This document shows positions 7,916 to 33,161 of a stretch of 33,161 bases of DNA, piece after piece. The stretch lies in the IMG/VR virus record IMGVR_UViG_2690316097_000007. One strand, 5' to 3'. The notes under the pieces are model-generated. The model made no database searches. It worked only from the letters and a program-made list of their open reading frames with translations, and was not told where the DNA came from. Each line of letters begins with the position of its first letter. Position 1 is the stretch's first letter. This stretch comes from a virus (lineage: Duplodnaviria; Heunggongvirae; Uroviricota; Caudoviricetes). The position numbers and the translations under genes were made by a program.

Positions 7916-7921
7916 ATCACT

Positions 7922-10789: not shown

Positions 10790-10820
10790 CGATTAATTAA
10801 TCAACATAAGGAAAAGCGAC

Positions 10821-11780: not shown

Positions 11781-11784
11781 ACCA

Positions 11785-12096: not shown

Positions 12097-12156
12097 CGAA
12101 TTTGACGGCTTTTAATTTTATCGGGGTGCACTGTCGCCCCGCACGAGGAAAACACG

Positions 12157-12917: not shown

Positions 12918-12931
12918 CTCAAGGGGGATTA

Positions 12932-16437: not shown

Positions 16438-16591
16438 TGCTCCCCCTGAGTAATTACAGGAAGATTACCCGCGCGCGAAACCGTTCTCCTTAACCCCCTG
16501 TTCTGGCCGTTTTCTTACAACAAAAGCCCTTTGTATCAGCCTGTTACGCTTTGCCATCATGACTGAAGAACCAGTCAGAGGGGCAAAAACT
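16438..16591. promoter_or_regulatory. Divergent late promoter region between P and O
   Basis: Intergenic region between divergent terminase and scaffold operons, the position of the P2 late promoters. Contains the dyad TACA-N12-TGTA at 16516-16535, reminiscent of the TGT-N12-ACA activator site of P2 late promoters. Assigned by position. Confidence 0.35.
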
Positions 16592-17428: not shown

Positions 17429-17451
17429 TAAGACAAAGGAGCAAATTTTTT

Positions 17452-18504
17452 ATGAATCTGGTGATGTCAGATATTACCCGCAACAAGCTGGGTTGCTATA
17501 TGGCGCAGCAGGCGTCGCTTAACAATATCCCGGTTTCTGCACTGGTATCGCGATTTACCGTGGAACCTGCGGTGCAGCAACGTTTTGAAAACGCCTCAAA
17601 GGATAGCACCGAACTTACAAAAAAAATTAACGTGATCGGCGTGACCGACCAGAAAGGCGAAAAAATCCTCCTGGACACCACAGGACCGATTGCACGCACA
17701 AATACCAGTTATGACGGAACAAAACGCCGTAACCCGAATAACGTGGTTGATCTGAAAAACCGCAAATACCAGTGCGAACAGGTGAACTACGACACGTTTA
17801 TTTCGTATCCGCAGCTTGATGCCTGGTCGGCACACAGCGATTTTCAGTCCCGCATCAGCGCACAGATTGCCCGACAGGTGGCACTTGACCGCATCATGAT
17901 CGGTTTCAACGGCACATCTCACGCGGATGAGTCCAACTTCAGCACCAACAAGCTGCTTCAGGACGTTAACGTGGGGTGGCTGGAGCACATCAGAACCAAT
18001 GCCAGCGAGCGCGTAATGAATGACGTGACGCTGACTTCCCGCAACATGGACAACACCGTGGCGCACGCGGGTAAATACGCGAACCCTGATGCACTGGTAC
18101 AGGACGCGCGCTCATCTCTGCTGGATGAATGGCACAAGGAAGCTGACGACCTCGTGGTGATTATGGGGCGCAACCTGTTTAACTCGCTGCGTCTGCCAGT
18201 GCTGAACAGCATCAGCGGCCAGAATCCCAATGCGGAATTACTTGCCGGGCAGCTCATCCTGTCATCGCGCACCATTGGCGGGCTGGGTGTGTTCCTTGCA
18301 CCGTTCTTCCCGGATGCAACGATGCTGATCACCTCATTCAACAACCTGTCGATTTACTGGCAGAAAGGTTCAATGCGTCGTCTGATGAAAGACGAACCGG
18401 AATACAACCGCATCGCCACCTACCAGTCCATCAATGACGCTTATGTCGTTGAAGACTATGGCAAGTGCGCGATGGTCACTGGCCTGAAGTTCGCCGACAG
18501 CTAA
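17452..18504 (+). CDS. N: Major capsid protein (P2 gpN-like)
   Basis: 350-aa ORF. Segments VSALVSRFTVEP and NRKYQCEQVNYDTFI resemble P2 gpN as recalled (KKFTVEP, NKYECDQINFDFYI). Position is between O and M. Confidence 0.85.
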   Translation: MNLVMSDITRNKLGCYMAQQASLNNIPVSALVSRFTVEPAVQQRFENASKDSTELTKKINVIGVTDQKGEKILLDTTGPIARTNTSYDGTKRRNPNNVVDLKNRKYQCEQVNYDTFISYPQLDAWSAHSDFQSRISAQIARQVALDRIMIGFNGTSHADESNFSTNKLLQDVNVGWLEHIRTNASERVMNDVTLTSRNMDNTVAHAGKYANPDALVQDARSSLLDEWHKEADDLVVIMGRNLFNSLRLPVLNSISGQNPNAELLAGQLILSSRTIGGLGVFLAPFFPDATMLITSFNNLSIYWQKGSMRRLMKDEPEYNRIATYQSINDAYVVEDYGKCAMVTGLKFADS

Positions 18505-18549
18505 TCAACTCACGGCGGGCATCATGCCCGCCTGTAACGGAGAGAAAAA

Positions 18550-19350
18550 ATGATTACTCCTGCACAGCAACACTGGCAGAACGTGATGGCACAGCGCGCA
18601 GGCCGGGCGAATGAAGGTGTGGACCACGCCGCGCGTACCGCGCATGAAGAGGTGCTGTATCGTCTGCGTCTGGCACAGGCCCGGCTTAAGGGCGTACAGG
18701 CCAGAAGCGCGAAAGCCGACATCAAAAAAGCGTTGTTGCCGGACTTTTCCGGCTGGATTGAGGGAACGCTGGAGGCTGACGGCGGGCAACAGGACGAAGT
18801 GATTGCCACGCTGATGGTGTGGGCGATTGACTGCGGCGATCTTCCGCTTGCGCTGCGTATTGGTGCGTATGCGGTCCGTCACAACCTCATCATGCCGGAT
18901 AACTTTGGCCGTACTGCTGCCACAGTGCTGACCGAAGAAATCTGCAATCCGGTACTGACGCAGGCCGGGACGGATGCCGACGCGGATTTGTCCGTCTTTA
19001 TCGAACCACTGGACACACTTTGGGAAATTGTCGCCAACCAGGATATGCCGGACGAAGTGCGCGCCAAATTATGCAAGGCGTGCGCCTTTGCCCGCCGTGG
19101 CCTGAGCGATGCGGACAGCATGGCCTCATCACTGAAGCTGCTGCGCGAAGCGATGCATCTGAACCAGAACGCAGGTGTGAAACGCGAGATTGCAACCCTT
19201 TCCCGCGCCCTGAAAAAAGCCGATTCCGCAGCCGCACCAGAAGACGCCAGCGCACAGCAGGCGCAGGACGAAAGCAGCGAAAGTAAAAAGACAACGCGGA
19301 AGCCTGCAACACGAAAAACCACCGCGACGCAGAAGGCGAAGCGCGGTTAA
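18550..19350 (+). CDS. M: Terminase small subunit (P2 gpM-like)
   Basis: 266-aa ORF with MPDEVRAKL and QNAGVKREI matching P2 gpM as recalled (MPDEVRAKL, QAGVKKEI), and a basic C-terminal tail. Confidence 0.8.
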   Translation: MITPAQQHWQNVMAQRAGRANEGVDHAARTAHEEVLYRLRLAQARLKGVQARSAKADIKKALLPDFSGWIEGTLEADGGQQDEVIATLMVWAIDCGDLPLALRIGAYAVRHNLIMPDNFGRTAATVLTEEICNPVLTQAGTDADADLSVFIEPLDTLWEIVANQDMPDEVRAKLCKACAFARRGLSDADSMASSLKLLREAMHLNQNAGVKREIATLSRALKKADSAAAPEDASAQQAQDESSESKKTTRKPATRKTTATQKAKRG

Positions 19351-19442
19351 CGACTGACCCCGTCAGCGGGCGGCGTGCGCGGTGTTCCGGTTTGGCTCCG
19401 TGACCGTTTACACCGCGCACCCACCGCCCGATTTTTTCAGGA

Positions 19443-19946
19443 GTGAACCCCATGAGTATGGTTGCCAGAACTGAACCCGGACCCGCAGAGGACGACATCA
19501 CCGACACCGAAGATGGCGATACCCGTATTTCAGCGGGTGCATTCTGGCCGGATATTGTGCTGCGCGAGCTGCGTCTGGCGGTACGACTGCCGGGCCGCGT
19601 GACCACCTCCCGCCTGCTGCATACCGCCACCGGGGCCGTGGCACACGTTACCCGCGAGCTGGAAGCATGGCAGCAGGAACAGCAGGCGGCTGGCCATCAG
19701 ACGCTGGCCGATGTTCCGGCACCTGTAATTAACGGAGAAAGCGTCAATCTCTGGCACTGGCGCAATGCTGTTTATACCGCCACACGCGCCCTGATTCTGG
19801 AGCGTTACCGCGATGCGGACACAACGGACAAGGGCGACCGCCGGGCGGACGCACTGGATATACAGACATCGGATTTGTGGCGCGATGTGAGCTGGGCCAT
19901 CTCTGACATTCTGTGCCGCCCGCGAATCTTTGCGGAGTTGTGCTGA
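19443..19946 (+). CDS. L: Head completion/stabilisation protein (P2 gpL-like)
   Basis: 167-aa ORF ending ...DLWRDVSWAISDILCRPRIFAELC, close to the P2 gpL C-terminus as recalled. Precise start is uncertain (several Met near the N-terminus). Confidence 0.75.
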   Translation: MNPMSMVARTEPGPAEDDITDTEDGDTRISAGAFWPDIVLRELRLAVRLPGRVTTSRLLHTATGAVAHVTRELEAWQQEQQAAGHQTLADVPAPVINGESVNLWHWRNAVYTATRALILERYRDADTTDKGDRRADALDIQTSDLWRDVSWAISDILCRPRIFAELC

Positions 19947-20143
19947 TGAAAGTGAAGACACTGGAAGGCGACACCGTGGATTCGCTCTGTTTCCGGTACT
20001 ACGGCACGACGCAGGGCGTCACCGAAAAGGTGCTGGATGCCAACCCCGGACTCTGCCGACAGGTATTTCTGGAAGCCGGACAGGAGGTGGAAATGCCGGA
20101 GCCGGAGAAGAAAAAACAACGAGAGATGATACAGCTATGGTAA
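19946..20143 (+). CDS. X: Tail protein X (P2 gpX-like)
   Basis: 65-aa ORF from ATG overlapping the L stop (TGATGA). MKVKTLEGDTVDSLCFRYYG...ANPGL resembles P2 gpX. Confidence 0.75.
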   Translation: MKVKTLEGDTVDSLCFRYYGTTQGVTEKVLDANPGLCRQVFLEAGQEVEMPEPEKKKQREMIQLW

Positions 20144-20439
20144 CAGGTTTTTTTCTGCGGGTGAGTGACTGGATCACCTTCTGGGCATCAGTCACAGCCA
20201 CCACAATAGGCGTGATGACCATCAGTGAAAAAATCGCCCTTGCCGGGTTGTTACTCGGTTCTCTGTCTGCATTACATGCCTGGCGACATCGCCGCCTGAT
20301 GGAAACCGCCATGCAGCGTCGCAATGAACTCATCGCCAGTATCCTGGCGCAGTCAGACGCACGGCCACTTCACGACAGTGAGCGTCAGGCTCTGAACATT
20401 CTGCGGGATAACGATACACATGATAAAGCTGCCCGTTAA
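20137..20439 (+). CDS. Putative holin
   Basis: About 100 aa with two predicted TM helices (ITFWASVTATTIGVMTI, IALAGLLLGSLSALHAW) and a charged C-terminus. Lies between X and the endolysin, the holin position in P2-like lysis cassettes. No similarity to P2 gpY recognised. Confidence 0.5.
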   Translation: MVTGFFLRVSDWITFWASVTATTIGVMTISEKIALAGLLLGSLSALHAWRHRRLMETAMQRRNELIASILAQSDARPLHDSERQALNILRDNDTHDKAAR

Positions 20440-20875
20440 ACGTTACGCCGTAGCCGCCATTGTGGCGCTGGGGTTCTCCATTGCCCCTCACAAACTCCGG
20501 ACCAGCCCGGAAGCGCAAATCCGCATTGCCACATGGGAGGACTGTCGCGCAACGCCTTACCGGGATATTGCCGGGGTAATGACCGTGGGGTGCGGCTCGA
20601 CCGGGCATGTGGAAAATCGTCTGTACACCGAAACGGAAGTCGCCGGGCGCTGGGTTAATGATATGCAACATGCAGAAAACTGCATAAATCAGAACTTCAG
20701 CGGCAACGCCATGCCACAGTCCGCGTTTGAGGCAATGACAGATGCCGCCTTTAATCTTGGATGCAGAAATCTTATGTGGTTCAGGGATAAGAACCGTAAC
20801 TACCACCGCACCACTATCTGGAAACATGCACAGGCGCACAACTGGCCTGACATGTGCAACAGACTGACTTCGTGA
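20420..20875 (+). CDS. Endolysin, T4-lysozyme-like with signal-anchor-release-type N-terminus
   Basis: 151-aa ORF. Catalytic pattern E-x8-D-x5-T (TWEDCRATPYRDIAGVMTV) preceded by a Gly/Ala-rich hydrophobic N-terminal segment (YAVAAIVALGFSIA), as in SAR endolysins such as phage 21 R. Confidence 0.7.
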   Translation: MIKLPVKRYAVAAIVALGFSIAPHKLRTSPEAQIRIATWEDCRATPYRDIAGVMTVGCGSTGHVENRLYTETEVAGRWVNDMQHAENCINQNFSGNAMPQSAFEAMTDAAFNLGCRNLMWFRDKNRNYHRTTIWKHAQAHNWPDMCNRLTS

Positions 20876-20960
20876 ACAGCGGCGGCGAACGCTCACAGGG
20901 ACTGGTTAACCGTCGTACTGATTTTCGTGCATGGTGCTTACGTGACACCGGAGGCCAGTC

Positions 20961-21434
20961 ATGAAAGTGCGTTACATCCTGATGATGGCACTGACCGTCC
21001 TCACGCTGCTGACCATAACACTCTGGCAGACATTCAGACTGGGGCAGGAAGACGGACACAACCGTTATACACAGGCGCAACTGGACGATTACAGCCGGAC
21101 CCTGAAAGAGGCCGGCACCATCATCAGCACCGCATCCGGTGTACTGCGTGACGTCATGACAGCGCGCCAGAACCGACAACAGGAAGGGGAAATCCGACGT
21201 GAACAGCTACGCAACGATATCACGACAGATGCATGTGCCCGCGCTGTTCCTGACGCTCGCTTTACTGAGCGGTTGCACCAGCACGCAGAACGCGTCCGCG
21301 CCGCCGCCGTCGTTCCGTTTCATCCCGGAAGGGCTGACCGCCCCCGTACTTCCCCCGCCGTTTCCGGTGACGCCATCATGGGGAAACATCGGGATATGGA
21401 GCGACAGCCTCATGGACGCACTGGAAACCTGTAA
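20961..21434 (+). CDS. Rz-like inner-membrane spanin (LysB-like)
   Basis: 157-aa ORF with N-terminal TM helix and charged coiled-coil-like middle; GGAGG RBS; contains the nested Rz1-like gene in another frame. Confidence 0.6.
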   Translation: MKVRYILMMALTVLTLLTITLWQTFRLGQEDGHNRYTQAQLDDYSRTLKEAGTIISTASGVLRDVMTARQNRQQEGEIRREQLRNDITTDACARAVPDARFTERLHQHAERVRAAAVVPFHPGRADRPRTSPAVSGDAIMGKHRDMERQPHGRTGNL

Positions 21435-21519
21435 CGCCGATAAGCGGGCCATTGAATTACTGGAACAGCGCAGGCTGCAACGACTGAACAACGAGGACAA
21501 CAACCATGCTGAAAACTGA
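21229..21519 (+). CDS. Rz1-like outer-membrane lipoprotein spanin (LysC-like)
   Basis: Starts inside the Rz-like gene in a different frame. Signal peptide with lipobox LLSGC followed by a Pro-rich region (PPPSF...PVLPPPFPVTP). Confidence 0.6.
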   Translation: MHVPALFLTLALLSGCTSTQNASAPPPSFRFIPEGLTAPVLPPPFPVTPSWGNIGIWSDSLMDALETCNADKRAIELLEQRRLQRLNNEDNNHAEN

Positions 21520-21973
21520 TTCCCTGCGTGAAGCCATGACCCGTTCATGCCGGTGGTGTCATGCCAACCCGGAAAAATTCACCATTTTCGTGGAGAGCGG
21601 CAACATTGAAACGACCGGAGAAACCCCATCGTTTGTTTACCGCTATCAGATAGTGATGTTTGTCATGGATTACGCCGGAGAGCTGGACGACCTCACGCTG
21701 CCGCTGCTGGCGTGGTTATCCGAAAATCAGCCACAGTTGTTGCTCAATCCGGAGCGTAATCAGGACATCAAATTTTCCGCCGTTATCAATGACGATGACA
21801 GCGCCGATCTCCTGTTTACGCTCCCCCTGCGGGAACGCGTTCGCATCACGCGCAGCAGTCAGGGCACACCGCAGGCAGAACACCTGCCGGAGCCAAAACC
21901 CCGCCTGCCCTCTTCCGAAGGCGACTGGTCGCATGTATTCCAGGATGTGACGTGGGGGGAAAGCGATGGATAA
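21506..21973 (+). CDS. R: Tail completion protein (P2 gpR-like)
   Basis: 155-aa ORF with N-terminus MLKTDSLREAMT and internal LPLLAWLSENQP resembling P2 gpR (same length). Confidence 0.75.
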   Translation: MLKTDSLREAMTRSCRWCHANPEKFTIFVESGNIETTGETPSFVYRYQIVMFVMDYAGELDDLTLPLLAWLSENQPQLLLNPERNQDIKFSAVINDDDSADLLFTLPLRERVRITRSSQGTPQAEHLPEPKPRLPSSEGDWSHVFQDVTWGESDG

Positions 21974-22601
21974 GGCATTCACCCGCGTGGATGAAACCTT
22001 TGAGGCTATCCGCGACAGCCTGAATCAGCAGGCCATTAATAACATCGCCAGAAAGCTGGCACAGGATTTACGCCGCGCCCAGCAGGCGCGTATCCGGTCA
22101 CAGAAAGCGCCGGACGGGACCGCATGGACACCACGCAGACGCCGCGTAACCCGGATACAGGAGCGCATTCGCTTTATCTGGAATAACGAAGCACGCACGC
22201 TGAAAAACTGGCATCACGACACGGGGAAATACGGGCGAACCATCACCGGGTGGGATGAGGATAAAAACAATATCCGCACGTTTTACCGGGATGACATCGA
22301 CCGTTTTCTGGAAATACGCACCCGGCGCATCAACCAGGACAGCACCAGGCGCGTCTCCATGTTCGTAAAACTGCGCACCGCCCGCTACCTGAAAGCCCGT
22401 GCAGATGCTTCCGGTGTGACGGTGGGTTACAGCGGCGTGGCCGCACGTATTGCACGCGTTCATCAGTTCGGTGAGCGCGATCAGGTTGCGCCGGGCATTT
22501 TCACCGATTACCCGGTACGTGAGCTGCTGGGTATCAGCCAGGCAGATGAGCGCCTGATTTATAACACGGTGCTGGGCCGGATTGCGGAGGCTGTACGATG
22601 A
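21966..22601 (+). CDS. S: Tail completion/virion morphogenesis protein (P2 gpS-like)
   Basis: 211-aa ORF directly after R and before V. Assigned by synteny; it is longer than the roughly 150 aa I recall for P2 gpS. Confidence 0.6.
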   Translation: MDKAFTRVDETFEAIRDSLNQQAINNIARKLAQDLRRAQQARIRSQKAPDGTAWTPRRRRVTRIQERIRFIWNNEARTLKNWHHDTGKYGRTITGWDEDKNNIRTFYRDDIDRFLEIRTRRINQDSTRRVSMFVKLRTARYLKARADASGVTVGYSGVAARIARVHQFGERDQVAPGIFTDYPVRELLGISQADERLIYNTVLGRIAEAVR

Positions 22602-23179
22602 GCGCAGAACTCATGCGACTGCTGAGCAATATCATCCGCACCGGGATCATCTCTGAAGTTGATGAGGAATCCTGGTGCGTGCGCGTTCGCAGCGGCGAAC
22701 TGGAAACAGGCTGGCTGCGCTGGAACACCACGCGCGCGGGAGACTTCAACGTGTGGTTTCCGCCATCACCAGGCGAACAGGTGGCAATTGCCTGCATCGG
22801 CGGCAACCCGGAAACCGCCATGATAATCGGCAGCCTGTGGAGTGATGCCATTCCGGCACCCGGCAAAAGCCTGAAAGAAATCGTGGTCAGCGCGCCGGAC
22901 GGCGCGGTGTTCCGCTACGACGCGGACGCAGGCGCACTGAGCGCAAGCGGCATGAAAACGGCCACTTTGCAGGCATCCATCAGCGTGACACTGAACACGC
23001 CTGTCGTGGAATGCACAGACCTTCTGAGAACAGCGACGCTTGACGTCACAAAAGGGGGAACGATGAGCGGCAATATCACGCACAGCGGCGGCGATTTCAC
23101 CTCAAACGGCATCACAGTGCATACGCATAAGCACGGTGGCGTTAAAGGTGGCAGCGATTCGACAGGAGGCCCGCAGTGA
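22598..23179 (+). CDS. V: Baseplate spike protein (P2 gpV-like)
   Basis: 193-aa ORF with Gly-rich C-terminus (HTHKHGGVKGGSDSTGG), in the gpV position. Confidence 0.75.
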   Translation: MSAELMRLLSNIIRTGIISEVDEESWCVRVRSGELETGWLRWNTTRAGDFNVWFPPSPGEQVAIACIGGNPETAMIIGSLWSDAIPAPGKSLKEIVVSAPDGAVFRYDADAGALSASGMKTATLQASISVTLNTPVVECTDLLRTATLDVTKGGTMSGNITHSGGDFTSNGITVHTHKHGGVKGGSDSTGGPQ

Positions 23180-23526
23180 CAACCCGCTACACAGGAATGA
23201 ACCCGGACGGGACGGGAAACCTGAACGATATGGCGCACCTGAAACAGTCAGTCAGGGACATCCTGACCACCCCGCTGGCAAGCCGGGTTATGCGACGGGA
23301 ATATGGCAGCCTTGTGCCTGATTTGATTGACGAACCCATGAATAACACCACGCGTCTGCAATGCATGAGTGCTACCGTGATTGCACTGACACGATGGGAA
23401 CCACGCATTGCCCTGAACGCCATCGACGTTGTCTGGAAGGCAGGAGGCCACGCCGGGGTGACGCTGTCGGGCACTGTCATGCAGACCATGCAGAATGTTG
23501 AATTAACCATCACGCTGAGGGAGTAA
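23176..23526 (+). CDS. W: Baseplate protein (P2 gpW / gp25-like)
   Basis: 116-aa ORF of the size and position of P2 gpW; start overlaps V stop. Confidence 0.75.
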   Translation: MTTRYTGMNPDGTGNLNDMAHLKQSVRDILTTPLASRVMRREYGSLVPDLIDEPMNNTTRLQCMSATVIALTRWEPRIALNAIDVVWKAGGHAGVTLSGTVMQTMQNVELTITLRE

Positions 23527-23529
23527 ATC

Positions 23530-24426
23530 ATGCCTGCCGTTGACCTTTCCCAGTTACCGGAACCCGCCATCATCGCGGAGCCTGACTTTGAGGCAATTCT
23601 GGCTGACACAAAGGCCATGATGATTGCAGCTTATCCCGCCGAACAGCGTGAAGTCGTCTCCGCCGCACTGGAACTGGAATCGGAACCCCTGAACGTTATC
23701 GCTCAAACCATGTCGTTTCGTGAAATGCTGTTACGCCAGCGGGTCAATGAGGCCGCACGCGCCTGCATGTTGAGCCACAGCGCCGGAACAGACCTGGACA
23801 ACCTCGCGGGCAATATGAACACAAAGCGCCTGGTTATCACTCCGGCAACGGATACCACCGACGTGGTGATGGAGAACGACACCTCGCTGAGACTGCGGGC
23901 GCAGCGGGCGTATGACGGCCTGAGTGTTGCAGGCCCGTCAGGCGCATACGAGTATTTTGCCCGCAGCGCCAGCGGTCTGGTGCGCGATGCGCGGGCCATC
24001 AGTCCGTCTCCGGCAAATGTGACGGTTTCCATCCTGTCCACTGAGGGCGACGGCACAGCAACGGAGGCGTTGCTTAATACCGTTCGCGCCGTTCTGAATG
24101 CAGAGGATACCCGCCCGGTGGCCGACCGCCTGACCGTACAGAGTGCCAGAATCGTGACATGGCGGCTGAATGCAAAACTGTACTTTTACCCCGGTCCGGA
24201 ATCCGAACCTATTCTGGCTGCGGCTGAATCGTCGTTCAGGAAGTGGCTGGCTGAGCAGGGGCTTATCGGTCAGGACGTGGCGTTGTCCGCCATTGCTGCC
24301 GCACTGCATGTGCACGGTGTGCAACGCGTGGAGATAATCGAACCCACACAGAATATGGCCATCAGCGACATACAGGCGGCGCGCTGTGAGTCATTCACCA
24401 TCAGCGAAGGTGGGCGTAATGAGTAA
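23530..24426 (+). CDS. J: Baseplate assembly protein (P2 gpJ-like)
   Basis: 298-aa ORF following W, same size class as P2 gpJ; stop overlaps the I start. Confidence 0.8.
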   Translation: MPAVDLSQLPEPAIIAEPDFEAILADTKAMMIAAYPAEQREVVSAALELESEPLNVIAQTMSFREMLLRQRVNEAARACMLSHSAGTDLDNLAGNMNTKRLVITPATDTTDVVMENDTSLRLRAQRAYDGLSVAGPSGAYEYFARSASGLVRDARAISPSPANVTVSILSTEGDGTATEALLNTVRAVLNAEDTRPVADRLTVQSARIVTWRLNAKLYFYPGPESEPILAAAESSFRKWLAEQGLIGQDVALSAIAAALHVHGVQRVEIIEPTQNMAISDIQAARCESFTISEGGRNE

Positions 24427-24949
24427 TTCACTGTTACCACCATCAGCCAGCAATTTCATGCGTTGTGCCGAAGCCGTCGGAACACGCATTACAGACATTC
24501 CGGCAGACCTCAACACGCTGTGGTCGCCGGACACCTGCCCGGTGCATCTGCTGCCTTATCTCGCCTGGGCGTTTTCCGTTGACCGCTGGGATCGCAACTG
24601 GCCGGAAGAGACAAAGCGACAGGTGATTCGTGATGCATGGCTGATACACCGACACAAAGGAACCATCAGCGCCCTGCGACGGGCCATTGAGCCGCTGGGA
24701 TACCTCATTCGCGTGTCTGAGTGGTGGGAGTTCAACGGCGAACCCGGAACATTCAAGATTGATGTTGGCACGCTGGACAGTGGCGTGACGGAGGAAATGT
24801 ATCTGGAAATGGAGCGGTTGATTGCTGATGCCCGCCCGGTCAGCCGCCACATGACAGGGCTGAATATCATTCAGGAGATTCAGGGAGATATTTTCGCGGC
24901 AGCAGCAACTTACGACGGTGAAGTCATTACCATTTATCCGGACGATTAA
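24419..24949 (+). CDS. I: Baseplate/tail protein (P2 gpI-like)
   Basis: 176 aa from ATG at 24419 (MSNSLLPPSASNF...), same length as P2 gpI. The track ORF starts at an upstream GTG. Confidence 0.75.
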   Translation: MSNSLLPPSASNFMRCAEAVGTRITDIPADLNTLWSPDTCPVHLLPYLAWAFSVDRWDRNWPEETKRQVIRDAWLIHRHKGTISALRRAIEPLGYLIRVSEWWEFNGEPGTFKIDVGTLDSGVTEEMYLEMERLIADARPVSRHMTGLNIIQEIQGDIFAAAATYDGEVITIYPDD

Positions 24950-24951
24950 GC

Positions 24952-26661
24952 ATGAGTACCACAACACGAAAATTTAAAACCATTATCACCGATACGGGTG
25001 CAAAAAAATTAGCGCAGGCAACCGCGCCAGATGGGAAACCTGTCCGCCTGACACATATGGCCGTGGGTGACGGCGGCGGTACTTTACCCACGCCAGACAG
25101 TAAGCAGACCCGTCTTGTGCATGAGGTGTGGCGACATACCGTTAATCGCGTCACCCTGGACGCAACACATCAGAACCACATTATTGCGGAGCTGGTTATT
25201 CCTCCTGAAACGGGCGGATTCTGGATCCGGGAAATTGGTGTGTTTGATGAGCACGGCGATTTGATCGCGGTAGGCAATACTGCCGAAAGTTACAAGCCAA
25301 CCGTTGCCGAAGGATCCGGACGTGCACAAACATTTCGCACCATTCTGACCGTATCCAGCACTGCCACTGTGGCGCTTACCGTGGATAACACCATGGTGAT
25401 GGCCACAGTGAATTACGTGGATGACAAACTGAAAGAGCATGAACAGTCACGACGTCACCCGGACGCCTCGCTGACCGCAAAAGGCCTTGTCCAGCTCAGC
25501 AACGCCACCAACAGCACGTCTGAAACGCTGGCAGCGACACCAAAAGCCGTTAAGGCAGTAATGGATGAAACGAACAAGAAAGCCCCATTAAACAGCCCGG
25601 CACTGACCGGAACGCCAACAACACCAACTGCGCGACAGGGAACGAATAATACCCAAATCGCAAGCACGGCTTTCGTTATGGCTGCGATTGCCGCACTTGT
25701 AGACTCTTCGCCTGATGCACTGAACACACTGAACGAGCTGGCGGCGGCGCTGGGCAACGACCCGAATTTTGCGACCACCATGACTAACGCGCTTGCGGGT
25801 AAGCAACCGAAAGATGCCACTCTGACGGCGCTGGCGGGGCTTGCTACTGCGGCAGACAGGTTTCCGTATTTTACGGGGAATGATGTCGCCAGCCTGGCAA
25901 CCCTGACAAAAGTCGGGCGGGATATTCTTGCGAAATCGACCGTTGCTGCCGTTATCGAATACCTCGGTTTACAGGAAACGGTAAATCAGGCTTCTGGCGC
26001 ATTACAGAAAAACCAGAACGGCGCAGATATTCCGGGGAAAGATACCTTCACCAAAAATATTGGTGCCTGCCGCGCATATAGCTCATGGCTGAATATTGGT
26101 GGCGATAGTCAGGTCTGGACAACCGCGCAATTTATTTCGTGGCTGGAGAGTCAGGGAGCATTTAACCATCCTTACTGGATGTGCAAAGGCTCATGGGCTT
26201 ATGCAAATAATAAGGTCATTACAGATACAGGTTGCGGAAATATTTGTCTTGCAGGTGCTGTGGTGGAAGTTATTGGCACTCGCGGCGCAATGACCATACG
26301 CGTTACCACGCCGAGCACGTCCAGCGGTGGCGGAATTACTAACGCTCAATTCACTTATATTAATCATGGTGATGCTTACGCTCCTGGCTGGCGACGAGAC
26401 TACAACACGAAAAATCAACAACCTGCATTTGCTTTAGGGCAAACAGGAAGCACTGTCGGAAATGATAAAGCTGTTGGCTGGAACTGGAATAGCGGGGTCT
26501 ATAACGCAAACATTGGTGGCGCATCGACATTAATCCTCCACTTCAATATGAATACGGGGAGCTGCCCTGCTGTACAGTTCCGCGTGAATTACAGGAACGG
26601 CGGTATTTTTTATCGTTCAGCGCGTGATGGTTATGGCTTTGAAGCTGACTGGTCAGAGTGA
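24952..26661 (+). CDS. H: Tail fibre protein (P2 gpH-like N-terminus with a shared C-terminal distal domain)
   Basis: 569-aa ORF directly after I. The N-terminal region is of the P2 H type; the C-terminal roughly 360 aa are identical to the C-terminus of the stf gene at 30182-33134. The stop codon TGA (26659-26661) coincides with the first 3 nt of the IS. Confidence 0.8.
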   Translation: MSTTTRKFKTIITDTGAKKLAQATAPDGKPVRLTHMAVGDGGGTLPTPDSKQTRLVHEVWRHTVNRVTLDATHQNHIIAELVIPPETGGFWIREIGVFDEHGDLIAVGNTAESYKPTVAEGSGRAQTFRTILTVSSTATVALTVDNTMVMATVNYVDDKLKEHEQSRRHPDASLTAKGLVQLSNATNSTSETLAATPKAVKAVMDETNKKAPLNSPALTGTPTTPTARQGTNNTQIASTAFVMAAIAALVDSSPDALNTLNELAAALGNDPNFATTMTNALAGKQPKDATLTALAGLATAADRFPYFTGNDVASLATLTKVGRDILAKSTVAAVIEYLGLQETVNQASGALQKNQNGADIPGKDTFTKNIGACRAYSSWLNIGGDSQVWTTAQFISWLESQGAFNHPYWMCKGSWAYANNKVITDTGCGNICLAGAVVEVIGTRGAMTIRVTTPSTSSGGGITNAQFTYINHGDAYAPGWRRDYNTKNQQPAFALGQTGSTVGNDKAVGWNWNSGVYNANIGGASTLILHFNMNTGSCPAVQFRVNYRNGGIFYRSARDGYGFEADWSE

Positions 26662-26688
26662 GGTAGCCTGAGTTTAACGGACACTCCT
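25601..26688 (+). repeat. About 1.09-kb near-identical direct repeat, copy 1 (3' end of H plus IS left end)
   Basis: Matches 32074-33161 at a fixed offset of 6473 nt; only 3 mismatches seen in the first 150 nt. Flanking similarity decays upstream (about 80-85% over 25480-25600 vs 31953-32073), as expected for a recombination boundary. Confidence 0.85.
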
Positions 26689-26722
26689 TCCTGAAATAGA
26701 ATGGCATCAGAAGGAGCTAATA

Positions 26723-27025
26723 ATGAGCAGAAAAACCCAACGTTACTCTAAAGAGTTCAAAGCCGAAGCTGTCAGAACGGTTCTTGAAAATCAACTTTCG
26801 ATCAGTGAAGGCGCTTCCCGATTATCTCTTCCTGAAGGCACTTTAGGACAATGGGTTACCGCCGCCAGAAAAGGGCTCGGTACTCCTGGTTCCCGCACGG
26901 TGGCTGAACTGGAATCTGAAATTCTGCAACTGCGTAAGGCGTTAAATGAAGCTCGCCTTGAGCGAGATATATTAAAAAAAGCAACAGCGTATTTTGCACA
27001 GGAGTCGCTGAAAAATACGCGTTAA
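26723..27025 (+). CDS. IS3-family transposase OrfA (HTH plus leucine-zipper part)
   Basis: 100-aa ORF with AAGGAG RBS; ends ...ERDILKKATAYFAQESLKNTR, typical of IS3-family OrfA proteins. Confidence 0.85.
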   Translation: MSRKTQRYSKEFKAEAVRTVLENQLSISEGASRLSLPEGTLGQWVTAARKGLGTPGSRTVAELESEILQLRKALNEARLERDILKKATAYFAQESLKNTR

Positions 27026-27060
27026 TCGAACAATGGCGACAACAATTTCCCATTGAAGCG

Positions 27061-27879
27061 ATGTGTCAGGTATTTGGTGTATCCAGGAGCGGTTATTACA
27101 ACTGGGTACAGCATGAACCCTCAGACAGAAAACAAAGTGATGAGCGGCTAAAACTGGAGATTAAGGTGGCACATATCCGCACTCGCGAAACATATGGAAC
27201 CCGGCGGCTCCAGACGGAGCTGGCAGAGAATGGCATCATCGTTGGTCGTGACCGACTGGCACGTCTTCGTAAGGAGCTAAGGCTACGCTGTAAGCAGAAA
27301 CGCAAGTTCAGAGCGACTACGAACTCGAACCACAATCTGCCAGTTGCGCCAAATCTGCTGAACCAGACGTTCGCTCCTACAGCACCAAATCAGGTCTGGG
27401 TGGCGGACCTGACGTATGTTGCCACACAGGAGGGATGGTTGTACCTCGCTGGCATCAAAGATGTTTATACGTGCGAAATTGTCGGCTACGCCATGGGAGA
27501 GCGCATGACAAAAGAGCTGACAGGTAAAGCCCTGTTTATGGCGCTCAGGAGCCAGCGCCCACCTGCCGGGCTAATCCACCACTCTGATCGAGGTTCACAG
27601 TACTGCGCATACGATTACCGGGTCATACAGGAGCAGTCTGGTCTGAAAACATCAATGTCGCGTAAAGGTAACTGTTACGACAACGCTCCGATGGAAAGCT
27701 TCTGGGGAACGCTGAAAAATGAGAGCCTGAGCCACTATCGTTTTAATAACCGGGATGAAGCCATCTCAGTAATACGGGAATACATTGAGATTTTCTACAA
27801 TCGTCAGCGTCGTCACTCTCGTCTGGGGAATATCTCCCCGGCAGCCTTCAGGGAAAAATATCATCAGATGGCTGCTTAA
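27061..27879 (+). CDS. IS3-family transposase OrfB (DDE catalytic domain), expressed as an OrfAB fusion by -1 frameshift
   Basis: 272-aa ORF in the -1 frame relative to orfA. The -1 frame is open from the slippery site (26974) through 27061. DDE-type motifs are visible (WVADLTYV, HHSDRGSQY, integrase-core-like C-terminus). Confidence 0.85.
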   Translation: MCQVFGVSRSGYYNWVQHEPSDRKQSDERLKLEIKVAHIRTRETYGTRRLQTELAENGIIVGRDRLARLRKELRLRCKQKRKFRATTNSNHNLPVAPNLLNQTFAPTAPNQVWVADLTYVATQEGWLYLAGIKDVYTCEIVGYAMGERMTKELTGKALFMALRSQRPPAGLIHHSDRGSQYCAYDYRVIQEQSGLKTSMSRKGNCYDNAPMESFWGTLKNESLSHYRFNNRDEAISVIREYIEIFYNRQRRHSRLGNISPAAFREKYHQMAA

Positions 27880-27923
27880 AAAAAGAACAAATGGTAGTGT
27901 CCGCTATTGCCAGTACACCTCAN

Positions 27924-28606
27924 TTAATCCTGCGAATGGCAACACAAAGCCGATGTTTGTTGGTCAGGGCGATCAGATATTCATGAACGACGTGTTCCTG
28001 AAACGCCTGACGGCTCCCACCATTACCAGCGGCGGTAATCCTCCGGCATTTTCCCTGACACCGGACGGAAAACTGACCGCTAAAAATGCAGATATCAGTG
28101 GCAGTGTGAATGCGAACGCCGGGACGCTCAACAATGTCACAATTAATGAGAACTGTCAGATTAAGGGGAAACTGTCAGCCAACCAGATTGAAGGCGATAT
28201 AGTCAAAACAGTGGGTAAGGCTTTTCCGCGGGACTCCCGGGCACCGGAGCGGTGGCCATCAGGGACCATTACCGTCAGGATTTATGACGATCAGCCTTTT
28301 GACAGGCAAATTGTTATTCCGGCGGTGGCATTCAGCGGCGCTAAACATGAGCGGGAGAATAACGATATTTATTCGTCATGCCGCCTGATAGTACGGAAAA
28401 ACGGTGCTGAAATTTATAACCGTACCGCGCTGGATAATACGCTGATTTACAGTGGTGTTATTGATATGCCAGCTGGTCGCGGCCACATGACGCTGGAGTT
28501 TTCGGTGTCAGCATGGCTGGTGAATAACTGGTATCCCACAGCAAGTATCAGCGATTTGCTGGTTGTGGTGATGAAGAAAGCCACCGCAGGCATCAGTATC
28601 AGCTGA
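27924..28606 (+). pseudogene. J: 3' fragment of a lambda J-like host-specificity (central tail fibre) gene
   Basis: About 227 codons after the IS. Resembles the C-terminal receptor-binding part of lambda J as recalled ([29 protein letters not shown]...; ends [10 protein letters not shown] vs lambda KKQALGISVV). The rest of J (about 900 codons) is missing; followed by lom as in lambda. Confidence 0.75.
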
Positions 28607-28673
28607 ATTTTATAACCCATATACGGGCGCCAGAAATGGCGCCTTTTTTATTGCAGAAAAGCGAGAGGTAATT

Positions 28674-29273
28674 ATGCGTAAAGTTTGTGCAGCCATTTTG
28701 TCCGCAGCCATCTGTCTGTCCGTATCCGGTGCGCCTGCATGGGCGTCTGAACATCAGTCCACACTGAGCGCGGGGTATCTTCATGCCCGTACGAACGCTC
28801 CCGGCAGCGATAATCTGAACGGGATTAACGTGAAATACCGTTATGAGTTTACGGACGCGCTGGGGCTGATTACGTCCTTCAGTTATGCCAATGCTGAGGA
28901 TGAGCAAAAAACGCACTACAGCGATACCCGCTGGCATGAAGATTCCGTGCGTAACCGCTGGTTCAGCGTGATGGCGGGGCCGTCTGTACGCGTGAATGAA
29001 TGGTTCAGCGCGTATGCGATGGTGGGTGTGGCTTACAGCCGTGTGTCGACTTTCTCCGGGGATTATCTCCGCGTAACTGACAACAAGGGGAAAACGCACG
29101 ATGTGCTGACCGGAAGTGATGACGGTCGCCACAGCAACACGTCTCTGGCGTGGGGGGCTGGCGTGCAGTTTAACCCGACCGAATCCGTGACCATTGACCT
29201 TGCTTATGAAGGTTCCGGTAGTGGTGACTGGCGAACGGATGCATTTATTGTTGGTATCGGATACCGTATCTGA
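28674..29273 (+). CDS. lom: Lom-like outer-membrane beta-barrel protein (Ail/Lom family)
   Basis: 199-aa ORF with signal peptide and C-terminal aromatic residue pattern (IVGIGYRI), in the lambda position between J and stf. Confidence 0.85.
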   Translation: MRKVCAAILSAAICLSVSGAPAWASEHQSTLSAGYLHARTNAPGSDNLNGINVKYRYEFTDALGLITSFSYANAEDEQKTHYSDTRWHEDSVRNRWFSVMAGPSVRVNEWFSAYAMVGVAYSRVSTFSGDYLRVTDNKGKTHDVLTGSDDGRHSNTSLAWGAGVQFNPTESVTIDLAYEGSGSGDWRTDAFIVGIGYRI

Positions 29274-29424
29274 CAACAGACGCCGATTTATCTTCTGTAA
29301 ATATTGTTATGATACGCAGGTTCATCCACCTTATGGGGTGAACTGCGTTTGAGGAAACGTAAAGTTACACTGTCCTGAAGCCCGTGGCGTCACTGCTGCG
29401 GGCTTTTTTTATTGGTGGAAAAGT

Positions 29425-30129
29425 ATGACAGTAAAAATTTCTGGCGTGCTTAAAGATGGCACAGGAAAACCAGTACAGAACTGCACCATTGTGCTGAAGG
29501 CCAGACGAACCAGCAGCACGATGGTGGTGAACACGGTGGCCTCTGAAAATCCGGATGAAGCCGGACGTTACAGCATGGATGTTGAGCATGGTCAGTACAG
29601 CGTCACCCTGCTGGTTGAAGGTTTTCCGCCTTCACATGCCGGGACCATTACCGTCTATGAAGGTTCCAGACCAGGTACGCTGAATGATTTTCTCGGTGCC
29701 ATGACGGAGGATGATGTCCGACCGGAGGCACTGCGCCGCTTTGAGCAGATGGTGGAAGAGGTGTCACGTAACGCCTCCGCGGTTGCACAGAATACGGCAG
29801 CCGCGAAAAAATCAGCCAGCGAGGCGGCAACTCATGCAACCGATGCTGCAGCCTCAGCACGTGCCGCCAGCACGTCAGCCGGACAGGCCGCGTCGTCGGC
29901 TCAGTCAGCGTCTTCCAGCGCAGGAACGGCATCGACAAAGGCCCGTGAAGCAGCAAAAAGTGCTGCTGCAGAGTCATCAAAAAGCGCGGCAGCTACCAGC
30001 GCCAGTGCCGCGAAAACGTCAGAAACGAATGCCGCAGCATCACAAAAATCGGCAGCCACTTCTGCATCCACAGCGACCACGAAGGCGTCAGAAGCTGCCA
30101 CCTCGGCACGGGGTGNATTAGCCAGGTAA
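29425..30129 (+). pseudogene. Truncated N-terminal copy of a side tail fibre gene (stf-like, about 231 codons)
   Basis: N-terminus MTVKISGVLKDGTGKPVQNCTIVLKAR... is about 90% identical to the start of the full stf at 30182 and matches the lambda Stf N-terminus as recalled. Reading frame ends just after an N at 30116 and is followed by a terminator. Confidence 0.65.
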
Positions 30130-30143
30130 CACAGTGTTATGAC

Positions 30144-30171
30144 AGCCCGCCGGTTCAGGCGGGCTTTTTTG
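30144..30171 (+). terminator. Rho-independent terminator
   Basis: Perfect 8-bp GC-rich stem AGCCCGCC / GGCGGGCT with 6-nt loop GGTTCA, followed by TTTTTT. Lies between the truncated stf fragment and the full stf gene. Confidence 0.7.
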
Positions 30172-30181
30172 TGGGGTGAAT

Positions 30182-33134
30182 ATGGCAGTAAAGATTTCAG
30201 GTGTACTGAAAGACGGCACAGGAAAACCGGTACAGAACTGCACAATCCAGCTGAAAGCAAAACGTAACAGCACCACGGTGGTGGTGAACACGCTGGCCTC
30301 AGAAAATCCGGATGAAGCCGGGCGTTACAGCATGGACGTTGAGTACGGTCAGTACAGCGTTATTCTGTTGGTGGAAGGATTCCCGCCGTCACATGCCGGG
30401 ACCATCACCGTGTATGAAGATTCCCGACCCGGTACGCTGAATGATTTTCTCGGTGCCATGACGGAGGATGATGCCCGTCCGGAGGCACTGCGCCGTTTTG
30501 AGCTGATGGTGGAAGAGGTGGCGCGTAACGCGTCCGCGGTGGCACAGAACACGGCAGCCGCGAAGAAATCAGCCAGCGATGCCAGCACATCAGCCCGTGA
30601 GGCGGCAACCCATGCGACTGATGCTGCAGATTCAGCACGTGCAGCCAGCACGTCAGCCGGACAGGCCGCTTCGTCGGCTCAGTCAGCGTCTTCCAGCGCA
30701 GGAACGGCATCAACAAAGGCCACTGAAGCCTCAAAAAGTGCTGCCGCTGCAGAGTCCTCAAAAAGCGCGGCGGCTACCAGTGCCGGTGCGGCGAAAACGT
30801 TAGAAACGAATGCGGCAGCGTCACAACAATCAGCAGCCACTTCTGCATCCACCGCGACCACGAAAGCGTCAGAAGCTGCCACCTCAGCCCGGGATGCGTC
30901 GGCTTCAAAAGAGGCGGCAAAATCATCAGAAACGAACGCATCATCAAGCGCCAGTAGCGCAGCTTCCTCGGCGACGGCGGCTGCAAATTCTGCGAAGGCG
31001 GCCAAAACGTCCGAGACGAACGCCAGGTCTTCTGAAACGGCAGCGGGACAGAGTGCCTCAGCTGCGGCAGGCTCAAAAACAGCGGCTGCGTCGTCTGCCA
31101 GCGCCGCGTCAACAAGTGCCGGGCAGNNNNNNNNNNNNNNNNNNNNNNNNNNNNNNNNNNNNNNNNNNNNNNNNNNNNNNNNNNNNNNNNNNNNNNNNNN
31201 NNNNNNNNNNNNNNNNNNNNNNNNNNNNNNNNNNNNNNNNNNNNNNNNNNNNNNNNNNNNNNNNNNAGCAGCGGGACAGAGCGCCTCAGCTGCGGCAGGT
31301 TCAAAAACAGCGGCTGCATTATCTGCCAGTGCCGCGTCAACAAGTGCCGGGCAGGCCTCAGCCAGTGCCACCGCCGCCGGAAAATCGGCAGAAAGCGCCG
31401 CATCATCCGCTTCAACAGCCACAACGAAGGCTGGCGAAGCCACTGAGCAGGCCACGGCAGCAGCTCAGAGCAAANNNNNNNNNNNNNNNNNNNNNNNNNN
31501 NNNNNNNNNNNNNNNNNNNNNNNNNNNNNNNNNNNNNNNNNNNNNNNNCATCATCCGCTTCAACAGCCACAACGAAGGCTGGCAAAGCCACTGAGCAAGC
31601 CACTGCAGCAGCGAGGTCTGCTTCTGCAGCAAAAACCTCTGAAACAAATGCAAAGACTTCAGCAGACAATGCTGCTTCCTCTAAGGCAGCAGCCGCATCG
31701 TCAGCCAGTTCAGCGGCGTCATCGGCATCATCTGCGTCTGCTTCAAAAGATGAGGCGACCAGACAAGCGTCAGCAGCGAAAGGTAGTGCCACGACAGCAA
31801 CAACGAAAGCATCAGAGGCGGCAGGCAGTGCGACGGCTGCATCTCAGAGCAAAGTTGCTGCTGAATCCGCGGCAACGCGCGCCGAGACAGCAGCAAAACG
31901 GGCAGAGGATATTGCATCCGCCGTGGCGCTGGAGGATGCGAGCACGACGAAAAAGGGGATAGTACAGCTCAGCAGTGCGACCAACAGCACTTCCGAGTCA
32001 CTGGCGGCAACGCCAAAAGCGGTTAAGGCGGTAATGGGTGAAACGAACAAGAAAGCGCCCTTAAATAGTCCTGCACTGACCGGAACGCCAACAACACCAA
32101 CTGCGCGACAGGGAACGAATAATACCCAAATCGCAAGCACGGCTTTCGTTATGGCTGCGATTGCCGCACTTGTAGACTCTTCACCTGATGCACTGAACAC
32201 GCTGAACGAGCTGGCTGCGGCGCTGGGCAACGACCCGAATTTTGCGACCACCATGACTAACGCGCTTGCGGGTAAGCAACCGAAAGATGCCACTCTGACG
32301 GCGCTGGCGGGGCTTGCTACTGCGGCAGACAGGTTTCCGTATTTTACGGGGAATGATGTCGCCAGCCTGGCAACCCTGACAAAAGTCGGGCGGGATATTC
32401 TTGCGAAATCGACCGTTGCTGCCGTTATCGAATACCTCGGTTTACAGGAAACGGTAAATCAGGCTTCTGGCGCATTACAGAAAAACCAGAACGGCGCAGA
32501 TATTCCGGGGAAAGATACCTTCACCAAAAATATTGGTGCCTGCCGCGCATATAGCTCATGGCTGAATATTGGTGGCGATAGTCAGGTCTGGACAACCGCG
32601 CAATTTATTTCGTGGCTGGAGAGTCAGGGAGCATTTAACCATCCTTACTGGATGTGCAAAGGCTCATGGGCTTATGCAAATAATAAGGTCATTACAGATA
32701 CAGGTTGCGGAAATATTTGTCTTGCAGGTGCTGTGGTGGAAGTTATTGGCACTCGCGGCGCAATGACCATACGCGTTACCACGCCGAGCACGTCCAGCGG
32801 TGGCGGAATTACTAACGCTCAATTCACTTATATTAATCATGGTGATGCTTACGCTCCTGGCTGGCGACGAGACTACAACACGAAAAATCAACAACCTGCA
32901 TTTGCTTTAGGGCAAACAGGAAGCACTGTCGGAAATGATAAAGCTGTTGGCTGGAACTGGAATAGCGGGGTCTATAACGCAAACATTGGTGGCGCATCGA
33001 CATTAATCCTCCACTTCAATATGAATACGGGGAGCTGCCCTGCTGTACAGTTCCGCGTGAATTACAGGAACGGCGGTATTTTTTATCGTTCAGCGCGTGA
33101 TGGTTATGGCTTTGAAGCTGACTGGTCAGAGTGA
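30182..33134 (+). CDS. stf: Side tail fibre protein (lambda Stf-like), interrupted by two N-runs
   Basis: N-terminus MAVKISGVLKDGTGKPVQNCTIQLKAKRNSTTVVVNT...GFPPSHAGTITVYEDSRPGTLNDFLGAMTEDDARPEALRR matches lambda Stf closely as recalled. Long Ala/Ser-rich repetitive middle. The sense frame changes across the N-run at 31475-31548 (gap length inexact). C-terminal roughly 360 aa are identical to the H C-terminus. Confidence 0.8.
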
Positions 33135-33161
33135 GGTAGCCTGAGTTTAACGGACACTCCT
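32074..33161 (+). repeat. About 1.09-kb near-identical direct repeat, copy 2 (3' end of stf plus IS left end, runs to window edge)
   Basis: Matches 25601-26688. The last 27 nt of the window (GGTAGCCTGAGTTTAACGGACACTCCT) are identical to the sequence following the H stop, i.e. the IS left terminus. Confidence 0.85.

Follow-up and report, generated by a model that had tools for sequence, protein, structure and literature searches.

A P2-like tail fibre gene truncated by IS600 and, very probably, falsely joined to a lambdoid J fragment in a draft contig

The window (the whole stretch of DNA that was analysed, 33,161 nt) is the entire contig CXBK01000038.1 of assembly GCA_001257435.1. It contains the following features, numbered from its first letter.

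15825-16085, 31127-31266 and 31475-31548: runs of N
24952-26661, + strand: P2-type tail fibre gene H, truncated, an open reading frame of 569 aa
25744-26658, + strand: block of 915 nt, repeated with 100% identity at 32217-33131
25951-25978: crossover site of the Gin/Pin/Cin type inside H, TTATCGAATACCTCGGTTTACAGGAAA, at the start of the variable part Sv(A)
26659-27922, + strand: complete IS600 (IS3 family), 1264 bp
26659-26688 and 27893-27922: terminal inverted repeats of IS600, imperfect, with TG...CA ends; 20 of the first 30 positions match
26723-27879, + strand: whole transposase of IS600, a predicted fused OrfAB of 385 aa
26723-27025, + strand: IS600 orfA
27061-27879, + strand: IS600 orfB, in the -1 frame relative to orfA
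27923: single N, a scaffold join and not a sequenced junction
27924-30115, + strand: piece A, an internal segment of the trpA-adjacent lambdoid prophage, 100.000% identical over 2192 nt
27924-28606, + strand: 3′ end of a lambda-type J gene, 683 nt (about 227 codons), aligning to the 3′ end of annotated gpJ
28674-29273, + strand: lom, with the Pfam match Ail_Lom
29425-30115, + strand: 5′ part of stf, within piece A
30116: single N, joining two overlapping paralogous pieces
30117-33131, + strand: piece B, three sub-contigs split by runs of N
30117-31126, + strand: B1, 5′ part of the stf gene of a second lambdoid prophage
31267-31474: B2
31549-33131, + strand: B3, middle part of the trpA-lambdoid stf running into the Sv(A) block
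33132-33161, + strand: first 30 nt of the left end of IS600, at the contig end

H lies after the baseplate genes V-W-J-I, and this gene order, together with the Pfam matches Phage_tail_fib and Phage_fiber_2, fits the tail fibre gene of a P2-like phage. The intact H of the closed genome L023 is 656 aa long, and 568 of the 569 residues encoded here are identical to it. Judged by this comparison H is not merely terminated but truncated by IS600, with loss of the C-terminal 87 residues (264 nt including the stop codon). The TGA that closes the reading frame is nt 1-3 of IS600. This has no special meaning, because each of the three frames meets a stop codon in the first 13 nt of the IS (TGA at nt 1, TAG at nt 6 and TGA at nt 11). 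The exact 569-aa product occurs only on two draft contigs, i.e. CXBK01000038.1 and one sibling, and a look-up with this protein found the H::IS600 insertion site in none of the closed genomes retrieved.

The inserted element is 99.9% identical over its full 1264 bp to copies annotated by PGAP as "IS3-like element IS600 family transposase" (1,750 E. coli records). It shares with IS600 of Shigella and E. coli (IS3 family, IS3 group) its length, ends, orfA and orfB frames, slippery site and domains, and in the element itself there is no difference from the known IS; only the insertion site is unseen in the other genomes retrieved. Its length falls in the range of about 1.2-1.5 kb that characterises the family. 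The left repeat reads TGAGGTAGCC... and the right repeat ...ACACCTCA. A slippery A7G motif (AAAAAAAG) is found at 26974-26981, and PGAP marks a "programmed frameshift" in copies identical to this one; a frameshift is accordingly a prediction from the sequence here too. Precomputed Pfam matches to the 385-aa OrfAB are HTH_Tnp_1 (PF01527), HTH_21 (PF13276), rve (PF00665) and rve_3 (PF13683), i.e. an N-terminal HTH and a DDE (rve) catalytic domain.

IS600 is flanked by GAG on the left and, across the scaffold N, by N-TT on the right, with no target-site duplication visible. At six of six independent IS600 sites in closed genomes the element is bordered by a perfect 3-bp duplication (CAT, GGG, GGC, AAT, AAC and CAC). 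The missing duplication at 26659-27922 fits flanks that do not belong together. A previous sequence-only reading had placed an IS3-family element at 26659-27923, with its left inverted repeat starting at the TGA of H. The family assignment and the left end at 26659 are upheld, and the element can now be named; its right end is at 27922, since 27923 is an N. We find likewise, as that reading had it, that there is no matching target-site duplication, that single Ns stand at 27923 and 30116, that the first of these is followed by the last ~227 codons of a lambda J-like gene, and that the left end of the IS recurs after the stf copy at the window edge.

The part of H that is interrupted belongs to an invertible segment. 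As in the G segment of Mu, the C segment of P1 and the P segment of e14, H consists of constant and variable parts with a crossover site of ~26 bp between them; unlike these, one arm here carries IS600, and inversion is predicted from the sequence. In closed relatives the segment holds a pair of fibre-assembly genes facing opposite ways, an alternative variable part in inverted orientation, and a Resolvase-family gene of 195 aa. The inverted partner of the crossover site lies beside this Resolvase-family invertase gene in the closed relatives and also in L003 and L005. In L018, L021 and L023 the Sv(A) block comes directly after the constant part of H (99.9%), and in L017, L019 and L024 it stands in reverse at the segment's far end, both orientations being present among the closed genomes. 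The rest of the invertible segment and the invertase gene lie outside the window.

The 915-nt block reaches from the end of the constant part across the crossover site into Sv(A), of which it takes in 681 nt, and the identical crossover site is found again at 32424-32451. Invertase-mediated exchange between prophages was considered as the sole origin of the duplicate and rejected, as identity begins ~208 nt upstream of the crossover site. In B3 the sequence at 31549-32167 is identical to 11719-12337 of locus L008, and that at 32217-33131 is identical to the P2 copy; between them, at 32168-32216, diagnostic sites alternate in a manner resembling a chimeric consensus. A de Bruijn assembler would normally collapse a block and IS end occurring twice at 100% identity, and in the sibling scaffold the P2 constant part is linked to Sv(A)::IS600 as well as to a different variable part. 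On these grounds it could be argued that the only real Sv(A)::IS600 is the lambdoid stf copy (32217-33161), and that the copy in H was generated by gap-filling, H itself being uninterrupted. However, Sv(A) belongs to the P2-like invertible segment in the six closed genomes just named, the lambdoid stf of 53G is joined to a different variable part, and it is the lambdoid copy in B3 that has the appearance of a chimera. We regard this explanation as extremely unlikely.

Piece A, to the right of IS600, corresponds to positions 9251-11442 of the locus in L007-L013 and L016, and is present in nine genomes including that of S. sonnei 53G (HE616528.1). In those nine genomes J runs on upstream with no IS, and stf runs on downstream. 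The truncated J (termed J′ here) provides an open reading frame of 217 aa carrying the Pfam domain Ig_GpJ_C, i.e. a fragment of a lambda-type tip attachment protein J, with lom and stf after it. A 219-nt exact repeat common to two J genes contains the left edge of piece A. Contigs break within 30 nt of this edge in five independent assemblies; those of four other assemblies begin at L008 positions 9260, 9278, 9278 and 9280, without IS sequence. In none of the retrieved genomes and contigs does IS600 interrupt J here.

These data bear on whether two real IS600 insertions might have been collapsed, one in H and one, specific to this isolate, in J at 27923/27924, with the scaffolder leading the flanks of both through one consensus IS, so that the adjacency would be false and J nonetheless interrupted. 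Piece A does begin exactly beside the IS end, an ATT target would be possible if the N were the A at L008 9250, and recent IS600 activity in S. sonnei has been high (PMC7373316). Against this, the edge of piece A carries no IS600 nucleotides, and the breaks at 9260-9280 in the four other assemblies mark a generic repeat boundary. The 217-aa J′ frame is called in only five contigs, and an IS adjoins it in none except the present scaffold. A second insertion in J is thus highly improbable.

The N at 30116 is instructive as to the nature of these positions. The sequences at 29408-30115 and 30165-30896 match at 85-91%, and after the N the sequence restarts in the lom-stf intergenic region. Since the pieces around 30116 overlap as paralogues, the single Ns in this contig are joins and not miscalled bases.

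It had been proposed in the sequence-only reading that an IS-mediated deletion or rearrangement had fused the P2-like prophage to lambda J and removed the P2 tail genes. Neither part of this proposal is supported. No continuous sequence crosses both ends of IS600 into the two loci, as the right junction is only an N. The sibling assembly GCA_001250835.1 (L005) shares both the identical H::IS600 and the position of the N, and continues with L008 11550-13043 where the present contig has piece A, which is itself an unaltered internal segment in the nine genomes. Closed genomes in which the P2-like late region is 99.9-100% identical keep the full set of tail genes after H (fibre-assembly, invertase, U, tape-measure, E, tube, sheath, D and ogr). 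In CP032523.1 and CP044191.1, the two closed genomes that contain both prophages, J′ and H are on the same strand, with J′ upstream by 0.55 and 0.62 Mb. Given this co-orientation, an H-to-J′ junction would need either a deletion, with ~4.4 Mb lost, or a tandem duplication of ~0.55-0.62 Mb; an inversion would give the wrong orientation, and no single deletion or inversion generates H-IS600-J′ from the geometry of these two relatives, from which the chromosome order of the isolate itself may differ.

There are nevertheless observations that could hint at a real link. In both assemblies H::IS600 is followed by pieces that come from one and the same lambdoid tail region, the target-site duplication that IS600 normally makes is missing, and IS-mediated rearrangement is common in Shigella genomes (PMC7373316, Hawkey et al. 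2020). Homologous recombination between two direct copies of IS600, one in H and one in the lambdoid J, would leave a hybrid IS with no target-site duplication; this is the form that the fusion proposed earlier would take. Against such a junction stand the N without crossing sequence, the different piece found at the same N in the sibling, and the demonstrably artificial join at 30116. The copy of IS600 in J that it requires was not seen in the genomes and contigs retrieved, and the breaks of other assemblies within 30 nt of the same edge occur without an IS and are attributable to the exact repeat. In addition, the tandem duplication alone fits the relative positions of the two loci. We therefore consider recombination between IS600 copies to be highly improbable, and a true H-IS600-J′ joint created by the tandem duplication or by a more complex rearrangement, upon which the scaffold happened, to be still less probable.

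The explanation that very probably applies is a plain insertion of IS600 into H of the P2-like prophage, together with a false scaffold join to J′. That the adjacency arose in scaffolding, with the single Ns as its sign, had been offered previously as an alternative, and is favoured by the N joins, by the sibling assembly and by the intact J-lom-stf loci. On this account IS600, an ordinary insertion sequence present in many copies in Shigella, entered the C-terminal part of H that is variable and invertible (Sv), in a prophage beside btuC. It did so 264 nt before the natural stop codon, so that the last 87 residues are lost and the TGA at the tip of the IS closes the reading frame. The assembler or gap-filler may then have extended through the consensus of many IS600 copies as far as the end of the IS, where the copies diverge, after which the scaffolder would have set an unrelated 2.2-kb contig of the trpA-lambdoid prophage after a single N. 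The true right flank would be GAG, then the last 261 nt of H and after it the tail genes usual for P2, on another contig of this assembly.

This leads to a definite expectation for the true right junction, which should read …ACACCTCA then GAG then TTTTACACC…. With a simple insertion the right end of IS600 would run into GAGTTTTACACC, and the spanning string ACACCTCAGAGTTTTACACC would comprise the IS600 end, GAG and the rest of H; with a fusion it would run instead into TTAATCCTGCG. The GTDB representative genomes gave no exact match to either junction string, and the JGI metagenomes gave none to the expected right-junction string.

The contig is probably a short-read scaffold, and the accession series together with sequence identity indicates that the host isolate is probably Shigella sonnei. 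Accessions close by in the series (CXBN, CXBR and CXBV) belong to S. sonnei isolates from the Holt 2012 collection (PMC5447701), which was sequenced with paired reads averaging 59 nt (PMC7373316). On the same two grounds we infer that GCA_001257435.1 belongs to this collection and was assembled with the Velvet/SSPACE/GapFiller pipeline; its accession did not appear in the supplementary files of the Sanger pipeline paper (PMC5320598). The authors of that pipeline state that greedy SSPACE and GapFiller "can lead to false joins", and that joined contigs are separated by Ns; their most fragmented assemblies were those of S. sonnei, with a mean of 405 contigs (PMC5320598). The S. sonnei chromosome carries a median of 286 IS insertions (PMC7373316).

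The features seen here correspond to false joins of the SSPACE/GapFiller-on-Velvet type, to the extent that our attribution of the assembler to CXBK01000038.1 is correct. Joins of a single N stand at the ends of repeats, paralogous contigs follow one another, nearly identical blocks occur twice, and one contig end has different neighbours in sibling assemblies. Estimation of the k-mer size of the assembler from the reach of contig ends into repeats was tried and abandoned, as the values were inconsistent (30 nt into the IS compared with 80 nt to the end of the J repeat at 9330).

The analysis carries a caution for genomes that are rich in IS elements, such as those of Shigella. In a short-read scaffold, a full-length IS followed by a single N is no proof of adjacency, and prophage "fusions" taken from records of this type are probably artefacts. 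The real event is a further strain-specific insertion of IS600, by which the P2-like fibre loses one of its two alternative receptor-binding ends. This resembles the IS-driven prophage decay described in Shigella (PMC7373316), where IS600 likewise inactivates a prophage gene in an IS-rich genome; compared with the IS-mediated rearrangements reported there, simple gene disruption alone is supported here. As the junction is almost certainly a short-read scaffolding join, the finding is ordinary: H::IS600 is routine prophage decay of a known kind and raises no new question.

A search of complete E. coli genomes for the two junctions found IS600 near related genes, not at these junctions. The copy beside the P2 fibre gene in strain 720632 and those beside J or lom in O157-type strains occupy other sites and have proper target-site duplications, so they arose in different events. 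Further copies of IS600 are present within the same fibre segment of closed relatives.

The tail-fibre gene H of the P2-like prophage is interrupted by a complete copy of IS600. The sequence-only reading had recognized an IS3-family element at this position, and comparison with reference copies (1,750 E. coli records carrying PGAP-annotated IS600) fixes its ends at 26659 and 27922, the N at 27923 lying outside. It has TG...CA termini with imperfect inverted repeats, and the predicted orfA-orfB fusion product of 385 aa contains HTH and rve domains.

Features of H, IS600 and the sequence to their right
24952-26661, + strand: H open reading frame, 569 aa; the final TGA is nt 1-3 of IS600
25951-25978: Gin/Pin/Cin-type crossover site in H, TTATCGAATACCTCGGTTTACAGGAAA
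26659-27922, + strand: complete IS600 (IS3 family), 1264 bp, 99.9% full-length identity to annotated copies
26723-27025, + strand: orfA of IS600
26974-26981, + strand: A7G slippery motif linking orfA and orfB
27061-27879, + strand: orfB, in the -1 frame relative to orfA
27924-28606, + strand: 3' end of a lambda-type J gene (J'; last ~227 codons), right of the single N
28674-29273, + strand: lom, downstream of J'

The H reading frame does end at the element, and IS600 does supply its stop codon, but the latter has no special meaning since every reading frame meets a stop within the first 13 nt of the IS600 left end. The gene is truncated: intact H in the closed genome L023 encodes 656 aa, is identical at 568 of the 569 positions and is 87 residues longer, the IS target lying between ...GACTGGTCAGAG and TTTTACACC. 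An exact-protein look-up found the 569-aa product in only two draft contigs. This is an ordinary, apparently strain-specific insertion truncating one variable end of the fibre.

The crossover site is paired, in closed relatives and E. coli O111:H8, with an inverted partner next to a Resolvase-family gene of 195 aa; the segment bounded by the two sites contains two opposed tail-fibre-assembly genes and an alternative fibre end in inverted orientation. The likeness to Gin/Pin/Cin-type systems consists of the site in the window's H, with the partner and invertase gene seen in relatives. On this basis the 681 nt from the crossover site to IS600 is one variable arm, Sv(A), of a predicted invertible host-range segment. 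Sv(A) directly follows the constant part of H in the closed genomes L018, L021 and L023 (99.9%), and is inverted at the far end of the segment in L017 (100% over 698 nt), L019 and L024. Lying within this arm, IS600 would knock out one of two alternative fibre ends. We note that in three closed genomes IS600 lies inside the distal crossover site (L017 14627-15890; L018 and L021 15894-17157; target-site duplication AAC), splitting it into ATTATCTAAAAC and AACCTCGGTTTACAGGAAAC, so that their segment should be locked in a single orientation. L018 and L021 have an additional IS600 in a fibre-assembly gene, with the duplication CAC.

The left part of the window contains nlpC-btuDEC and then the P2-like prophage, with integrase, replication, portal, terminase, capsid, lysis and baseplate V-W-J-I-H genes. 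The sequence 16086-26658 is 99.92% identical to L017, L018 and L023 over 9.9-10.6 kb, and L017, L019 and L020 match the late block 22000-25743 at 100%. In these closed genomes H is followed by fibre-assembly genes, invertase, gpU, tape measure, E, tube, sheath, D and ogr. The suggestion that the P2 tail genes have been lost is therefore unsupported, and the supposed loss is best explained as a scaffolding artefact. For the P2 lysozyme gene (20420-20875) the called product is 151 aa both here and in the sibling assembly, compared with 181-182 aa in closed relatives; alignment of 16086-25992 has a single gap, a 4-nt indel, and the shorter call reflects a frameshift or else an error of assembly. 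At 10821-12100, downstream of the replication endonuclease gene, are a ParM-like segregation gene and a plasmid-partitioning family gene, the names being taken from an annotated E. coli prophage with 99% identity.

By exact-protein look-up, the window is the whole of record CXBK01000038.1 (GCA_001257435.1; 33,161 bp). This record contains three N-runs (15825-16085, 31127-31266 and 31475-31548) and two single Ns (27923 and 30116), and is therefore a scaffold. The first run, of 261 Ns, lies inside the terminase large-subunit gene. Around 30116, 29408-30115 matches 30165-30896 at 85-91%, the sequence restarting in the lom-stf intergenic region; this N joins mutually overlapping paralogous pieces, so the single Ns are contig joins.

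J' does lie one N beyond the IS, as had been noticed. The piece 27924-30115, which includes the 5' part of stf downstream of lom, matches positions 9251-11442 of the trpA-lambdoid locus at 100.000% identity over its full 2192 nt in nine genomes, S. sonnei 53G (HE616528.1) and several closed chromosomes among them. There the match is internal to an uninterrupted J-lom-stf adjoining trpA, with J extending upstream and stf downstream. Its left edge falls within a 219-nt exact repeat common to two J genes, and contigs of four other independent assemblies begin at locus positions 9260, 9278, 9278 and 9280 without IS sequence; to judge from these sequences, the edge is a generic assembly breakpoint. 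It is very unlikely, in view of those IS-free breaks, that J harbours a second, real IS600 which was collapsed into this scaffold position.

In the sibling assembly GCA_001250835.1 (CXBQ01000042.1) the identical H::IS600 is followed by an N at the identical position, but then by a different piece (11550-13043 of the trpA-lambdoid reference locus). The proposed fusion of the P2-like prophage to lambda J thus rests on an N join, and the adjacency at 27923 is very probably a scaffolding artefact, the alternative that the same reading had offered, and not a genomic junction. The consensus would have been extended through multi-copy IS600 up to its last base, where the copies diverge; this may be why the IS sequence ends exactly there. 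The true right junction was not found in exact-pattern scans of GTDB representative genomes and JGI metagenomes, and we therefore hold the artefact to be very probable rather than certain.

The flanks, GAG and N-TT, indeed show no target-site duplication, whereas six independent IS600 insertions in closed genomes are each flanked by a perfect 3-bp one (CAT, GGG, GGC, AAT, AAC and CAC); this fits flanks that do not belong together, and would also fit a true IS600-mediated rearrangement joining H and J'. Besides the differing sibling piece, chromosomal geometry makes such a rearrangement highly improbable. In CP032523.1 (loci both reversed) J' is at 4,278,386 and the H insertion point at 3,726,815; in CP044191.1 (both forward) they are at 4,754,390 and 331,407. 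In both of these closed chromosomes with both prophages H and J' are co-oriented, J' being 0.55 and 0.62 Mb 'upstream'. If the isolate shares this chromosome order, a direct joint needs a ~4.4 Mb deletion or a 0.55-0.62 Mb tandem duplication, and a single inversion cannot yield it.

Short-read library fragments are usually a few hundred bases, which we assume here, and reads of ~59 nt would then be unable to anchor both sides of a 1264-bp IS. S. sonnei is the probable host. In the same accession series, CXBN, CXBR and CXBV belong to S. sonnei isolates from the collection of Holt et al. 2012 (PMC5447701), for which paired reads averaging 59 nt were obtained on the Illumina GAII; the median number of IS insertions in S. 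sonnei is 286 (PMC7373316). The record was presumably made by the Sanger pipeline, in which joins are marked with Ns, whose authors describe SSPACE and GapFiller as greedy and able to produce false joins, and whose most fragmented assemblies were S. sonnei (PMC5320598); the assembly accession was not found in the supplements of that paper.

The window closes with a repeat of the first 30 nt of IS600, after an stf copy as had been observed; the 915 nt preceding it are identical to those before the first IS. The block 31549-33131 is a mosaic: 31549-32167 (619 nt) is identical to trpA-lambdoid stf (reference locus 11719-12337; 53G), 32217-33131 (915 nt) to the P2 copy of the Sv(A) block, and diagnostic sites at 32168-32216 alternate P2, lambdoid, P2. 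The mosaic represents a third allele or else a consensus of chimeric origin. Around the crossover site all fibre genes here have exact stretches in common, so the assembly graph cannot phase constant and variable parts; three different pairings occur across the two sibling scaffolds, and in closed genomes Sv(A) is located in the P2-like prophage. Sequences flanking the two stf N-runs match each other at 93-95% over 87 nt (31040-31126 / 31268-31354) and 64 nt (31401-31464 / 31549-31612). The neighbouring contigs are therefore overlapping paralogues, and the 'gaps' are not missing sequence.

Beyond another single N the sibling scaffold contains a second copy of a 4.1-kb P2 late block (S-V-W-J-I and the H constant part; 6939-11041 and 14468-18570). 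The copies differ at only 3 positions, none more than 75 nt from the crossover site, and the second continues into a variable part that matches the lambdoid prophage's at 99% identity; either the extra block belongs to a second prophage or the assembly pipeline duplicated it. Overlapping J fragments are strung in series, separated by N-runs or single Ns, in other public drafts (L026 1995-3980, GCA_009684325.1 WKWA01000206.1; L011 9066), so the artefact recurs at lambdoid tail genes.
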